Shown here piece by piece: positions 13,305 to 17,720 of a stretch of DNA of 58,059 nt (position 1 is the stretch's first letter; the number at the start of each line of letters is the position of its first letter). Origin of the DNA: Nautiliaceae bacterium. GTDB taxonomy: Bacteria > Campylobacterota > Campylobacteria > Campylobacterales > Nautiliaceae. The notes beneath the pieces were generated by a model. That model searched no databases. It saw only the letters and a list, made by a program, of their open reading frames with translations, and had not been told where the DNA came from. Location: assembly GCA_039831155.1 (NCBI GenBank), contig JBDONT010000013.1:1-58059 (forward strand). The letters run 5' to 3'. Position numbers and translations under genes: made by a program.

Positions 13305-15746
13305 ATGTATCCAGGTATTACGGTGATTAAAAGAAACGGAAGACGAGAACCTCTTGATATTTCTAAAATCAGAAAATATACAAAGGCTGCTTGTGAGGGG
13401 CTTAAGGGGGTTGATTATACGGAACTTGAACTTGATGCCAAACTTCAGTTTCGTGACGGAATTACTACGGCTGAAATTCAAGAGACGTTAATTAAAACGG
13501 CAGTTGATAAAATTGATGTCGATAGACCTAATTGGAACTTTGTGGCAGCAAGACTTTTTTTATATGATTTATATCATAGGGTAACCGGATTTACGGGATA
13601 TAATCATTTAAGAGAATATTTTGAAAGAGGGGAAAAAGAGGGGAGAATTTTACTTGGGCTTAAAGAAAAATATGATTTGGATGATTTAAACGATTATATA
13701 AAAACCGATAGGGATTTGCAGTTTACTTATCTTGGGATAAAAACGCTTTATGACAGATATATTATAAAAGACAGACGAGGAAACCCTATTGAGCTTCCAC
13801 AGCAGCTTTTTATGGGTGTTGCTATGTTTTTGGCTCAAAACGAGATAAATCCTAATAGCATTCCTAACGCCGATAAAGATAAAGTTAATTTAAACGACCC
13901 GAAATCCATTAGAGGGTATTGGGCTAAGAAGTTTTATGACGTTATTTCCAAATTCGAGGTAATGGTAGCAACTCCTACTCTTAGCAACGCAAGAACGACG
14001 CGTCACCAATTAAGCAGTTGTTATGTCGGAAGTATGAACGATAACATTGAGGGGATTTTTGATGATTATAAAGAAATGGCTTTACTTAGTAAATTCGGTG
14101 GAGGAATCGGATGGGATTTTAGTAAGATAAGAGCCCTTGGGAGCTTTATAGACAATCATAAAAACGCAGCCGGTGGGGTTGTGCCTTGGCTTAAAATTAC
14201 AAACGATATCGCAATTGCAGTAGACCAGCTGGGAACTAGAAAAGGTGCGATTGCCGTTTATCTTGAGCCGTGGCATATGGATATTTTGGACTTTTTGGAT
14301 TTGAAGAAAAACTCCGGAGAAGAGAGACGCAGGGCTCACGATTTGTTTCCGGCTTTATGGATTAGCGATTTATTTATGAAAAGAGTTCAAAACGATGAGC
14401 TTTGGACGCTTTTTGACCCTTACGAAGTATCGGATTTAACAGACCTTTACGGTGAAGAGTTTGAAAAAAGGTATATAGAATACGAAAACGACCCAAATAT
14501 CACAAAAGAAAAAATTAAAGCGAAAGATTTATGGAAAAAAATTTTAAGAGAGTATTATGAAACTGGAAATCCTTTTCTTTGTTTTAAAGATAATGCAAAC
14601 AGAAGAAATCAAAACGACCACGCCGGAATTATTAGAAGCTCAAACCTTTGTACCGAAATTTTTCAAAACACAGAACCGAATCATTATAAAGTAAAAGTCG
14701 TTTATGAAGATGAGAGCTTTGATTTGTTTGAAGAGGAAGAGGATGTTGAGGTAACTCAAGGTGAAGTGAAAATAGTTAAAAAAGCGAAAAAAATAACTTC
14801 TATTGACGAAATTAACGGTAAAAGAGTTTATATCGTGGAAAAAGTGTCGGTGGAGGGGAAAACTGCCGTTTGTAACCTTGCTAGTGTGAATTTATCTAAA
14901 GTAAATACACCGGAAAAAATTGAAGAAGTTGTTCCGATTGCCATTAGAATGCTTGATAACGTAATTGATTTGAACTACTATCCGGTTAGAAAAACAAAAG
15001 ATACGAACCTTAAAAACAGAGCCATAGGTCTTGGTGCTATGGGTGAGGCTCAAATGCTTGCCGAAAAGCAGATTCACTGGGGAAGTGACGAGCATTTAAG
15101 AGTGATTGACGAAATTTTTGAGGGGATTAGTTACTGGGCTATAAAAACAAGTGCTTCTTTGGCTCAAGAAAAGGGAATTTATCCGGAATTTAATGGTAGC
15201 AGATGGTCTAGGGGAATTCTTCCTATAGACAGTGCGAATGAAGAGGCTAAAAAGCTGGTAAACAGGGATTTATTCAGTGCTACTGCTTATGATTGGGAAG
15301 GGGTAAGAGAAGAGGTTAAAAAAGGAATGAGAAACGGATATTTAATGGCTATAGCTCCTACTAGTTCCATTTCTATTCTTACAGGAACCACTCAAACGAT
15401 AGAGCCGGTTTATAAAAGAAAATGGTTTGAAGAGAATTTAAGTGGATTAATTCCAGTGGTAGTGCCTAATCTTAGTGCCGAGACGTGGATGTTTTATACT
15501 CCGGCGTATGAACTTGACCAAAGAATACTTGTAAAAGCGGCGGCAATTCGTCAAAAATGGATAGACCAGGGACAAAGTCTTAATATCTTTATTACAACCG
15601 ATAAAGCAAGTGGAAAATATTTAAATGAAATTTATATGCTTGGATGGAAACTAGGACTTAAATCGTTTTATTATTTAAGAAGTCAGTCTCCGGAAATTAA
15701 AGAAGAGGTAATGGATAGAAGCGTTGAGTGTTTCGGGTGTCAGTAG
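13305..15746 (+). CDS. nrdA: Class I ribonucleotide reductase alpha subunit
   Basis: ATP cone (VIKRNG), LSSC, SNLCTEI, CNLAS, APTSSIS, YYLRS, C-terminal CxxC. Confidence 0.98.
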   Translation: MYPGITVIKRNGRREPLDISKIRKYTKAACEGLKGVDYTELELDAKLQFRDGITTAEIQETLIKTAVDKIDVDRPNWNFVAARLFLYDLYHRVTGFTGYNHLREYFERGEKEGRILLGLKEKYDLDDLNDYIKTDRDLQFTYLGIKTLYDRYIIKDRRGNPIELPQQLFMGVAMFLAQNEINPNSIPNADKDKVNLNDPKSIRGYWAKKFYDVISKFEVMVATPTLSNARTTRHQLSSCYVGSMNDNIEGIFDDYKEMALLSKFGGGIGWDFSKIRALGSFIDNHKNAAGGVVPWLKITNDIAIAVDQLGTRKGAIAVYLEPWHMDILDFLDLKKNSGEERRRAHDLFPALWISDLFMKRVQNDELWTLFDPYEVSDLTDLYGEEFEKRYIEYENDPNITKEKIKAKDLWKKILREYYETGNPFLCFKDNANRRNQNDHAGIIRSSNLCTEIFQNTEPNHYKVKVVYEDESFDLFEEEEDVEVTQGEVKIVKKAKKITSIDEINGKRVYIVEKVSVEGKTAVCNLASVNLSKVNTPEKIEEVVPIAIRMLDNVIDLNYYPVRKTKDTNLKNRAIGLGAMGEAQMLAEKQIHWGSDEHLRVIDEIFEGISYWAIKTSASLAQEKGIYPEFNGSRWSRGILPIDSANEEAKKLVNRDLFSATAYDWEGVREEVKKGMRNGYLMAIAPTSSISILTGTTQTIEPVYKRKWFEENLSGLIPVVVPNLSAETWMFYTPAYELDQRILVKAAAIRQKWIDQGQSLNIFITTDKASGKYLNEIYMLGWKLGLKSFYYLRSQSPEIKEEVMDRSVECFGCQ

Positions 15747-15754
15747 GAGATAAA

Positions 15755-16591
15755 GTGAGTAAGATAGTAGCTATATTTGTTTGTATTATTATAGGAATTC
15801 TCTCCCTTTTTGTTGGATTTTTAGTAATAAATGAGCTATCATTTGAAGTTTTAGAGAAATTGAAAATTTTATCTTATATATTAATCTCTTTTTCTGTGAT
15901 GATTGCAATTTTGCAATATAGAGAGAACCTAAAACAAAATGAAAACATATCTAAATGGAACAAAAAACAGATTACTATTACACAATTACATAATTTAAGA
16001 CAATCTCTAAACGAAATTACAAAAGAATTAAATAATTATCTAAATACCAGAAGAAAAGAGCCTTATAGTGTAAGAGAAATTCACTCTTTATTCGGTATTA
16101 TTATTGATTGGAGTAAATTGAGCGATTCGGAAAAGGAAAAGTTGGAAAATTTTTTCGGAAGTTATATACAAAAAGAAGATGATATTCCCAATGCCGGAAG
16201 TGTAAGAGAAAATTTTAGATTTGTTTTTTACAAAGAGGATATTCCGCAAAATGTTGAAGAAATTATTGATAAAGTTAGATTAACCAATAAAAGATTGGAA
16301 GAAGAAAAATTAAATGACTTATATTATCATCAAGAATGGAAAAATTATGACGGGAAGTTTTTAAACAAGTCTTTACATAGCTTTTTAAGTGAATATGAGT
16401 ATTTATCTACCGGTGTTAATAATAATATTTTTGAAATAAAAATTGTAGACGATTTAATGGGAAGTCCCGTTATAAGAGCTTATGAAACTTTTAGTTTGTA
16501 TATTTCTCATTTAAGAGAATATCATCAATTAAAAACGTTGTATACTCAATTTCAAAAACTTTATGAAACTATAAAAAGAGAAAGAGGTTAA
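15755..16591 (+). CDS. Membrane-anchored DUF4760-like protein between nrdA and nrdB
   Basis: GTG 15755 after AGGAG; 2 N-terminal TM segments; FLSEYEYLSTGVNNNIFE..YTQFQKLY resembles DUF4760; visibly AT-rich. Confidence 0.75.
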   Translation: MSKIVAIFVCIIIGILSLFVGFLVINELSFEVLEKLKILSYILISFSVMIAILQYRENLKQNENISKWNKKQITITQLHNLRQSLNEITKELNNYLNTRRKEPYSVREIHSLFGIIIDWSKLSDSEKEKLENFFGSYIQKEDDIPNAGSVRENFRFVFYKEDIPQNVEEIIDKVRLTNKRLEEEKLNDLYYHQEWKNYDGKFLNKSLHSFLSEYEYLSTGVNNNIFEIKIVDDLMGSPVIRAYETFSLYISHLREYHQLKTLYTQFQKLYETIKRERG

Positions 16592-16626
16592 AAAGGAGGC
16601 CAATCTTGAAAAATTTTACACATCAT
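16588..16626 (-). CDS. Candidate 12-aa micro-peptide MMCKIFQDWPPF
   Basis: AAAAAGGAG SD and own promoter; its stop overlaps the stop of the DUF4760-like gene. Confidence 0.45.
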   Translation of the reverse strand: MMCKIFQDWPPF

Positions 16627-16641
16627 AACTCCTTTTTGAAT

Positions 16642-16670
16642 ATAATATAAAAAATCAGATATTTTGTCAA
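16642..16670 (-). promoter_or_regulatory. Sigma70 promoter for the antisense micro-ORF
   Basis: Minus strand TTGACA-17 nt-TATTAT; overlaps plus-strand TATAAT (16641-16646) ahead of nrdB. Confidence 0.55.
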
Positions 16671-16679
16671 GGAGAGAAA

Positions 16680-17720
16680 ATGCAAATAAAAAAACTGTTT
16701 AACTATAACTGCCCTATTCATAAAGGTAGTACGACTTCAATTATTAACGGATGTACGGAGGGTATAATTAACTTAAATAACCTTTCTTATCCGTGGGCTT
16801 ATAATTTGTGGGATATAATGCTTGCAAACACTTGGTTCCCAAGAGAAGTGGATTTAACGGAAGACGCAAGACAATATAGACAACTGCTTCCAGCAGAAAA
16901 AAGAATGTACGATAAGGCTTTAAGTCAGCTTATTTTTATGGATAGTATTCAAACGAATAATACTCCAGACCACGTTAATCCTTGGATTACGGCACCGGAA
17001 GTTAATATGTGTTTGGTTCGTCAAGCTTTTGAAGAAGCACTTCACTCTCAAAGTTATGCCGTAATGGTTGATAGTATTTCTCTAAATACCGAAGAGATTT
17101 ATGAGATGTGGAGGGCTGATGAGAATTTAAGAAAGAAAAACGAATTTATCGGAAACGTTTATGAAGAGTGGGGGATTAAGGCTTTAAACGGGGATGATGA
17201 GGCTAAAATTTATATGATTGTCGCAAACCAGGCGTTAGAGGGGATTTATTTTTATAACGGATTTGCAGCGTTTTATGTGCTGGCAAGAGCCGGAAAAATG
17301 ATTGGGTCGGCTCAAATGATTAGGTTTATTCAAAGGGACGAGGTTACTCATACTTTACTTTTTGCCAATATTTTTAAAGAGATAAAAAAAGAGTATCCGG
17401 ATTTGTTTACTCCAAATGTTATTAAAAATATAAAAGAAATGCTTTATGCGGCATATGAGCTTGAGAGAGACTGGGGGTATTATATAACAAACGATGAAAT
17501 CCTTGGAATGAGTAAAGAACTTATCGACAGATTTACAAAATATCTTGCAAATAGGCGTGTAAATGCTATGGGGCTTGAGCTTTTATTTCCTGAAGTCGGG
17601 CTTAAAAATCCTATTACGTGGTTTGATAGTTTCAGTTCTTTTAACGAACAAAAAACAAACTTTTTTGAAGGTAACGTCGTAAATTACTCTAAAGGGAGTT
17701 TAAATCTTGATGATTTTTAG
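16680..17720 (+). CDS. nrdB: Class Ia ribonucleotide reductase beta subunit
   Basis: D, EEALHSQSY (radical Tyr), LEGIYF, RDEVTH, NFFE..Y tail. Confidence 0.97.
   Translation: MQIKKLFNYNCPIHKGSTTSIINGCTEGIINLNNLSYPWAYNLWDIMLANTWFPREVDLTEDARQYRQLLPAEKRMYDKALSQLIFMDSIQTNNTPDHVNPWITAPEVNMCLVRQAFEEALHSQSYAVMVDSISLNTEEIYEMWRADENLRKKNEFIGNVYEEWGIKALNGDDEAKIYMIVANQALEGIYFYNGFAAFYVLARAGKMIGSAQMIRFIQRDEVTHTLLFANIFKEIKKEYPDLFTPNVIKNIKEMLYAAYELERDWGYYITNDEILGMSKELIDRFTKYLANRRVNAMGLELLFPEVGLKNPITWFDSFSSFNEQKTNFFEGNVVNYSKGSLNLDDF

Follow-up and report, generated by a model that had tools for sequence, protein, structure and literature searches.

A conserved micro-gene for a peptide ending in Trp-Pro-Pro-Phe lies tail to tail with a DUF4760 gene between nrdA and nrdB of a Nautiliaceae bacterium

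A convergent micro-gene in the nrdA-nrdB spacer

The window, by which we mean the whole 58,059-nt stretch of DNA analysed here, lies on contig C22 of a 1.53-Mb Nautiliaceae genome (G000). Between the genes for the large and small subunits of ribonucleotide reductase, nrdA and nrdB, it carries a gene of the DUF4760 family (hereafter the partner gene) and, on the minus strand of the 88-nt spacer ahead of nrdB, a micro-gene that meets the partner gene tail to tail (Table 1). A preliminary description of the locus, made from the sequence alone, had reported for the micro-gene a TTGACA-17-TATTAT promoter, a Shine-Dalgarno (SD) sequence and an open reading frame (ORF) that runs from two consecutive ATG codons to a TAA overlapping the stop of the partner gene. 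Every one of these elements is present; the two stops share the TTAA at 16588-16591, the partner gene ending with the TAA at 16589-16591. The GTG at 15755, which comes with an AGGAG immediately 3' of the nrdA stop, is most likely the start of the partner gene, rather than position 15728, and gives a protein of 278 residues.

The micro-ORF had been described as having 12 codons. Its frame is as described, but its start is probably one codon further on: GGAG lies 2 nt from the first ATG (16626) and 5 nt from the second (16623), and since the GGAG-ATG spacing is exactly 5 nt in six of the eight distinct loci described below, translation probably begins at 16623. The predicted product is then the 11-residue MCKIFQDWPPF, the conserved core of which, D-W-P-P-F-stop, occupies 16605-16588. 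It is the sole W-P-P-x-stop frame in the whole genome, on both strands. The promoter-like site matches at 11 of 12 positions and is the best of 13 such sites between 15000 and 18000; transcription from it would start near 16635. However, shuffled sequences gave 12.7 ± 3.2 sites, so that 13 is the chance level and the promoter match alone proves little.

Contigs 100% identical to 16179-16672 and to 16179-16626 occur in two metatranscriptome runs from one vent sample. These establish presence in an RNA library only, with DNA carry-over possible. Coverage resumes at about 16852, a gap that is uninformative because the contigs are unstranded and carry no transcript ends.

Table 1 Features of the micro-gene locus in the window
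Feature	Position	Strand	Remarks
nrdA, class I ribonucleotide reductase large subunit (upstream flank)	13305..15746	+	PF02867, E 4e-181
Partner gene, DUF4760 family, 278 residues	15755..16591	+	Pfam PF15956, E 1.6e-13; GTG start behind AGGAG
TTAA holding both stop codons, 4-nt overlap of the two ORFs	16588..16591		same geometry in G000, L017, L015 and G024
Micro-ORF MMCKIFQDWPPF-stop	16588..16626	-	ATG ATG TGT AAA ATT TTT CAA GAT TGG CCT CCT TTT TAA
SD sequence AAAAAGGAG	16629..16637	-	precedes the micro-ORF
-10 hexamer TATTAT	16642..16647	-	17-nt spacer from TTGACA; overlaps plus-strand TATAAT 16641-16646
-35 hexamer TTGACA	16665..16670	-	just upstream of the nrdB SD sequence on the other strand
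Promoter-like TACACA-18-TATAAT, possible nrdB promoter	16617..16646	+	10/12 match; overlaps the micro-gene -10 hexamer; putative function
nrdB, ribonucleotide reductase small subunit (downstream flank)	16680..17720	+	PF00268, E 5.4e-74

The micro-ORF is conserved as a peptide

Ten loci combine readable DNA with a relative of the partner gene (35-100% identity at the protein level): the window locus, three loci from 41 related genomes searched (G005, G024 and G032) and six vent-metagenome contigs (L014-L019; 37-59% identity). The preliminary description had named convergent, SD-led short ORFs with a conserved C-terminus as what homologues should carry, and nine of the ten loci do: each has a convergent SD-led ORF of 11-20 codons that ends in [DE]-W-P-P-[F/L/Y]-stop. 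The nine encode eight distinct peptides, the G005 peptide being identical to that of the window: MMCKIFQDWPPF, MKKIYQDWPPF, MKTINKDWPPF, MKNIIKRDWPPF, MNLIKKINMDWPPF, MARVVRLVKKDIRLEDWPPL, MARRVTIQKNIRLEDWPPF and MKAFIKRIKEEWPPY. All are hydrophilic and lack a hydrophobic leader.

In a codon-anchored table of the eight distinct loci, the D/E-W-P-P codons show no change at first and second positions, and three of the four vary at the third (GAT/GAA, and CCT/CCA twice). An isoleucine stands eight codons before the stop in six of the eight. An in-frame SD and ATG are found in nine of nine loci in spite of the change in ORF length, with GGAG or AGGA ahead of the start in each. Third-position variation combined with the constant SD and ATG indicates purifying selection on the amino-acid sequence, as for a translated small protein gene. 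Coding by the partner gene does not explain the conservation of the core, because the core lies outside the partner ORF in six of the eight distinct loci; only in L014 and L016 does it fall within the partner frame, giving the partner tails ...KKEANLY and ...KMEANPC. The two ORFs overlap by 4 nt in G000, L017, L015 and G024 and by 26 nt in L014 and L016, and are separated by gaps of 13 and 24 nt in L018 and L019. It is the conservation across loci, and not the window alone, that makes the micro-ORF more than a chance frame. We conclude from these comparisons that it is very probably a real gene under peptide-level selection, and that its product represents a new small-protein family. Annotation does not register genes of 11 codons, and selection at the peptide level has been demonstrated for few of them; this one has been kept, with promoter, ribosome-binding site and sometimes terminator, where partner proteins share only 35-60% identity.

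TTGACA-N17/18-TATTAT is kept in five of the nine loci (G000, L014, L015, L016 and L017); L018, L019 and G024 have extended -10-like sites in its place. The -35 hexamer, as TGTCAA on the nrdB strand, is absent upstream of nrdB in G004 and G001, both of which lack the module. In L016 the leader of the micro-gene, from promoter to SD on the minus strand, is about 45 nt longer than at other loci and contains GC-rich, self-complementary stretches (GCAGGCTCGCAGC...GCGAGAGGTGC...); it looks like an inserted structured element.

Two loci need separate comment. At the tenth locus, in G032, the DUF4760 frame looks split (80 + 141 residues) and a different 10-codon ORF, MLTNYDWGDE, lies convergently downstream of it (L004, minus strand, about 785-753). 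An almost perfect inverted repeat of about 18 nt (...AGTAGTATATACTAAAAC / TAGTTTTAGTATATACTACT; about 850-805) comes ahead of this ORF, which may represent a micro-gene that has decayed or diverged, along with an operator or terminator. In G005 the DUF4760 copy is broken by many indels and the micro-gene hexamers are altered to TTAACA and TTTTAT. We did not count this as joint decay of the module: G005 is an 88%-complete, co-assembled metagenome-assembled genome (MAG), in which an assembly chimera is possible. Relative to the window, the 3' half of this copy (G005:C23; L009/L005) is 96-99% identical and the 5' half 76-79%, with clustered small indels, and the region may be recombinant or a strain-chimeric assembly rather than a true pseudogene.

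The micro-gene keeps its partner but not its place

Among 30 Nautiliaceae genomes, three have a DUF4760 relative, and the same three have a genuine [DE]WPPx-stop micro-ORF. A fourth match to the pattern, in G014, was set aside as chance, since it lies inside a 444-residue membrane-protein ORF; the reversed control pattern gave two hits across the same genomes. A stricter, SD-anchored pattern, SD-ATG-...GATTGGCCNCCNYTNTAR, returned 14 stretches from all species-representative genomes and two from viral contigs. Of these 16, 11 are out of frame and one in-frame match has an internal stop; only L027, a Nautiliales MAG sequence matching G005, encodes a DUF4760 relative. Neither tblastn against phages and plasmids, which gave no match, nor viral scans with P0013 and P0014, which gave nothing useful, added loci, and a protein scan of genome contigs found no relative.

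The DUF4760 gene adjoins the micro-gene in nine of nine loci and is its constant neighbour. Placement between nrdA and nrdB, seen in Caminibacter-like genomes, accounts for six of the nine. In G024, a further Nautiliaceae genome, the pair occupies a prophage-like element, flanked by a P22 antirepressor-like gene on one side and a phage-type integrase on the other, with no nrd gene in the 3.3-kb locus read, and on the short contigs L018 and L019 there is no nrdB within the few hundred bases beyond the micro-gene. The nrdA-nrdB site itself has variable contents. It holds the DUF4760 module in G000 and G005 (window 15746-16680) and a 303-residue GH5 cellulase-family gene in G001 (PF00150, E 2.1e-16; L011 557-1468); in G004 nrdA and nrdB adjoin, only about 55 nt apart and with no insert (L010, about 1434-1500). 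This spacer is an insertion hotspot in the genus, and the module is an insert in it.

The preliminary description had proposed a protein plus micro-peptide module missed by annotation, which the nine of ten loci support. We conclude that micro-gene and DUF4760 gene most likely belong together as a two-gene module that has not been described before. Its placements show this module to be a small accessory cassette, mobile between genomic sites, in which the micro-gene is strictly paired with its partner at the loci read here.

The partner is a predicted membrane protein of a rare family

The window partner matches PF15956 with 51.4 bits against a cut-off of 25 (residues 186-280) and thus belongs to the family; with 77.6 bits, the G024 partner matches the profile along its whole length. 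Among named homologues, those nearest to the window partner are from Caminibacter profundus and C. pacificus, the closest being P0001 of C. profundus JCM 11957. The family is rare, with 193 representatives at E up to 1e-3, and 3 at 1e-30, among 1.84 billion proteins. An AlphaFold2 model built on a 66-sequence alignment has a mean predicted local distance difference test score (pLDDT) of 93.7 and a predicted template modelling score of 0.83. In the model an N-terminal helical hairpin that looks membrane-spanning continues as a very long helix (H6-34, H39-101), beyond which lie a helical bundle and a small sheet.

Searches for a known function returned little. Foldseek with the partner model found no match in the PDB at E up to 1e-3, and none in BFVD at the same threshold, where the best hit was an unnamed protein (2.8e-3). 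A wide VIA-align search gave a best Z of 8.5, for the EDS1-PAD4 helical domain and the C-terminal domains of glutathione S-transferases, which is in the range of unrelated helical bundles. In PADLOC-DB the best hit of the window protein was Unk_03 (E 0.011) and P0007 had none, values that do not assign either to a defence model. PHROGs offered only phrog_2284, of unknown function, NCBIfam nothing, and a protein atlas only unnamed DUF4760-like clusters. In the library covered by a full-text search, nothing concerned DUF4760 function, and one paper, on Serratia genomic islands, named the family. Literature searches on the peptide motifs and on Caminibacter small ORFs gave nothing relevant. The micro-gene is a first functional handle on DUF4760.

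A related motif ends other DUF4760 proteins

Across 156 family representatives, the motif [YFW]xxPF occurs within the last 22 residues of 11, usually preceded by Asp or Glu, and only twice in the other 29,705 residues. For a quick maximum-likelihood tree of 95 rows we labelled 14 as tail-bearing, namely all of the strict matches except the 100-residue P0051, together with four near-motif tails chosen by eye (P0055, P0018, P0035 and P0103). Thirteen of the 14 fall in one clade, with a support of 99 in the Shimodaira-Hasegawa-like approximate likelihood ratio test (SH-aLRT). This clade is separate both from the Caminibacter/L018/L019 clade and from G024/P0016. In the AlphaFold2 model of P0030, residues 241-260 form a mostly non-helical tail that includes D-Y-L-V-P-F, with pLDDT values of 95-96. 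From pLDDT alone, and not from contacts, we would expect this tail to be packed on the domain rather than floppy. A complex prediction of the P0030 domain (1-234) with its own tail (235-264) gave no answer, and its scores of 0.00 and 0.01 speak neither for nor against binding. The comparison of the two motifs suggests that the Nautiliaceae proteins may receive in trans what the tail clade carries in cis. A second tail motif was spotted by eye: many short-type DUF4760 proteins (P0027, P0044, P0053, P0071, P0119 and others) end in roughly [K/R][K/R]-x-P-T-[A/G/S], for example ...ERKPTA, ...KRKPTA and ...KRNPTS.

A peptide that may act in trans on the DUF4760 protein

The reading that we prefer, and to which we would give a little less than an even chance, makes the peptide a ligand or inhibitor that works in trans on the DUF4760 protein. 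The micro-ORF would be transcribed from its own strong promoter and translated from its own ribosome-binding site. Its product would be soluble, 11 residues long here and 11-20 in relatives, and would function through its C-terminal I-x-x-[D/E]-W-P-P-[F/L/Y]-COOH. Abundant peptide would bind the cytoplasmic helical domain of the DUF4760 protein and regulate it, probably by keeping it inactive in the manner of an antitoxin. The peptide would thereby fill in trans the type of site that the tail clade fills in cis with [D/E]-aromatic-x-x-P-F. The biological role may be phage exclusion or defence. If the relation of tail in cis to peptide in trans is true, the module would be a clear example from nature of how a short linear motif can be detached and encoded as a separate gene. 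The module also offers a compact, testable model of the possible control of a membrane protein by a free micro-peptide in a thermophilic vent bacterium.

Convergent transcription across the common TTAA may add antisense coupling, but this is not a common denominator of the loci. The earlier suggestion that the micro-gene transcript continues antisense into the partner gene cannot hold as a general rule. At the micro-gene stop of L018 and L019 stands a strong hairpin with a U-run behind it; the W-P-P-[L/F] codons make up the 5' arm of this hairpin, and the micro-gene need not extend to the partner coding region. Whole-transcript folds of these two have energies of -20.4 and -24.2 kcal/mol. Because hairpin and U-run stand directly at the stop, the micro-gene in L018 and L019 is, to judge from its signals, a self-contained unit with promoter, SD, ORF and terminator.

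Several points weigh against such a trans-acting peptide. No ORF of this kind accompanies four PF15956 loci of Campylobacteria that are more distant; they were drawn from the five of 401 Campylobacteria genomes that have the family, and the phylum-level search covered the same 401 genomes. The peptide-bearing proteins stand in two places on the quick tree, Caminibacter/L018/L019 and G024/P0016, and the range observed for the pairing is that of the loci with readable DNA, which do not include the proteins between these two places. The tail motif has one extra residue between the aromatic residue and P-F, and because of this difference in spacing the likeness of peptide and tail may be superficial; the tail motif is, moreover, usually trailed by 1-9 further residues, unlike the end of the peptide. 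A known peptide-binding site gives no backing, because the partner fold matches nothing informative. Finally, since the SD of the partner gene abuts the nrdA stop, the partner appears to be co-transcribed with nrdA, an essential gene, which would be unusual for a toxin.

A more specific form of the idea, which we consider rather unlikely as a whole, is that an acidic-aromatic-Pro-Phe ligand gates a membrane-anchored DUF4760 effector, the ligand being the protein's own tail in one clade and an externalised 11-residue peptide in Nautiliaceae, so that the pair would form a peptide-antitoxin switch. The effector would be off only while the labile, strongly expressed peptide keeps being made, and the W-P-P codons could tie the supply of peptide to translation capacity, through elongation factor P (EF-P) or the state of the ribosome. 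An insult to translation, such as take-over by a phage, would then release the effector, and the switch would be part of a mobile exclusion or defence cassette.

Alternative readings of the micro-gene

A different reading makes the act of translating the micro-ORF, and not the free peptide, the functional event. On this account, to which we assign a minority chance, the locus is a cis-acting translational or antisense switch: the nascent ...[DE]-W-P-P would slow or arrest the ribosome at the end of the ORF, and the ribosome parked over the stop would block the hairpin and terminator (as in L018 and L019) or shield the RNA from Rho, so that the antisense reach into the DUF4760 and nrdA genes tunes their expression, possibly in response to EF-P activity or a small molecule. 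As in arrest peptides, it is the last 5-8 codons that hold most of the conservation. W-P-P is the core of an engineered Escherichia coli arrest peptide, FXXYXIWPPP (PMC11669330), and WPPP is among the strong XPPP stallers of E. coli ribosomes (PMC11669330, PMC4176338). The stop of the micro-gene lies in the partner-stop TTAA in four of the eight distinct loci, and the codons that would stall the ribosome are those that form the hairpin arm in L018 and L019. However, arrest as published depends on a third proline, placed in the A site, where the micro-ORFs have F, L or Y and then the stop. The hairpin at the stop is found in only two of the eight distinct loci; on the minus strand no ORF follows, only the antisense of the DUF4760 gene and nrdA. 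Two conserved features, the acidic residue ahead of W and a final residue that is aromatic or Leu, have no obvious role in a Pro-Pro stall. Mechanisms outside the readings listed here retain a share of the probability about equal to that of this switch.

The peptide may also be real and have another target, its adjacency to DUF4760 reflecting no more than a shared mobile cassette; an example would be mimicry of the NrdB tail that docks on NrdA. In class I reductases, C-terminal peptides of the small subunit compete for the large subunit. Six of the nine loci lie between nrdA and nrdB, and NrdB ends in ...SLNLDDF, a sequence that, like the end of the peptide, combines an acidic residue, hydrophobic residues and Phe. 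Against this, the likeness extends to no more than the final residue and a single acidic one. The pair is also found away from nrd genes, by an integrase in G024 and with no nrdB seen on the short L018 and L019 contigs, whereas the DUF4760 gene is the element common to nine of nine loci. We regard another target as quite improbable.

Finally, GGNGGCCAATC and the SD-like sequences that flank it might be an RNA or DNA element in which the open frame is incidental, such as a stem or terminator at the 3' end of the DUF4760 mRNA, an antisense small RNA or a protein-binding site. Convergent RNAs that overlap at their 3' ends are known from type I toxin-antitoxin loci. As the preliminary description had noted, the SD can pair in the window with CUCCUUUUU, over 9 bp, but the stem is neither conserved nor unusually stable: the fold is no stabler than shuffled sequence (z = 0.19 for the minus strand and -1.21 for the plus strand), and the pairing is lost in the five loci in which proline is encoded as CCA instead of CCT (L015, L016, L018, L019 and G024). 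For the same reasons the alternative that the pairing of AAAAGGAG with CTCCTTTT is only a terminator-like stem is not supported. Searches with the Rfam 15 covariance models over 16300-16900, on both strands, gave no match at E up to 1. With a core that varies only at third codon positions, and with SD, ATG and open frame in nine of nine loci despite the change in length, a non-coding element is very improbable. Two further candidates were rejected. The plus-strand ORF that starts with TTG at 16606 behind AGGAGG is not kept in L014 or L015 as a conserved gene would be, and the GGCCAATC core does not make a DNA palindrome: palindromy is confined to TGGCCA, which the CCA variants alone contain.

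Relation to known peptide and toxin-antitoxin systems

Type I toxin-antitoxin loci with convergent, 3'-overlapping transcripts include par Fst/RNAII of pAD1 and, in Bacillus subtilis, TxpA/RatA and BsrG/SR4. The module resembles them in its predicted arrangement: two convergent transcription units run tail to tail up to, or into, a common terminator, one partner is targeted to the membrane, the carriers are mobile or prophage elements, and annotation often misses them. It differs in both components. The small partner of a type I system is an untranslated antisense RNA, here a conserved hydrophilic peptide; the type I toxin is a hydrophobic peptide of fewer than 60 residues, here the large partner has 218-300 residues (278 in the window) and so is not of this type. 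The type I antitoxin RNA overlaps the toxin mRNA. In the module the ORFs overlap by 4 or 26 nt in six of the eight distinct loci, and the L018 and L019 transcripts may stay clear of the coding region.

With arrest peptides, engineered (FXXYXIWPPP) or natural (SecM, TnaC), the micro-ORF shares its very small size and C-terminal conservation that includes W-P-P. Unlike arrest and leader peptides, it lacks the third proline, is not followed in cis by an ORF to be regulated, and is convergent with the associated gene instead of upstream of it.

In Bacillota, RRNPP-type signalling relies on peptide/receptor pairs such as Phr/Rap and PapR/PlcR. The likeness consists of a small gene beside a receptor gene and an active part made up of the conserved C-terminal 5-7 residues, receptor and active part being putative here. 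RRNPP pro-peptides, however, are about 40 residues long, carry a signal sequence and are exported and re-imported, whereas the peptides described here have 11-20 residues and no signal sequence. The RRNPP receptor is a cytoplasmic tetratricopeptide-repeat (TPR) protein; the partner is a predicted membrane-anchored helical protein without a TPR match, which sets it outside that class, and its host belongs to Campylobacterota. Small-protein regulators of membrane proteins are known in Enterobacteria (MgrB/PhoQ, AcrZ/AcrB, KdpF and MgtS). These too are unannotated micro-proteins acting through binding to a larger membrane protein, as we propose for the peptide, but they are hydrophobic, single-pass and about 30-50 residues long, whereas the peptide is shorter and hydrophilic and would bind a soluble domain. 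Of the same family as the partner are the tail-bearing DUF4760 relatives, such as P0030, P0041 and P0046, in which an acidic-aromatic-Pro-Phe motif is modelled confidently at the protein end. There the motif is in cis, has one extra residue, is usually not at the very C-terminus and belongs to the separate clade.

Overlapping predicted promoters and another convergent ORF

The micro-gene promoter and the plus-strand TACACA-18-TATAAT site use common -10 DNA (ATATAATAT; window 16617-16670), and GAATATAAT of the plus-strand site is also found upstream of nrdB in G001. Because the -10 DNA is common and the -35 hexamer lies just upstream of the nrdB SD sequence, RNA polymerase at either promoter may exclude polymerase from the other and may collide head-on with read-through from nrdA to nrdB. 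At one further locus, L046 (G332:C105), a 268-residue DUF4760 gene is followed, about 20-45 nt past its stop, by a convergent 9-codon ORF, MRMRDVTRV, with a strong SD (AGAAGGAGAAAAT) ahead of it; the peptide is unlike the W-P-P peptides, and the ORF may be there by chance.

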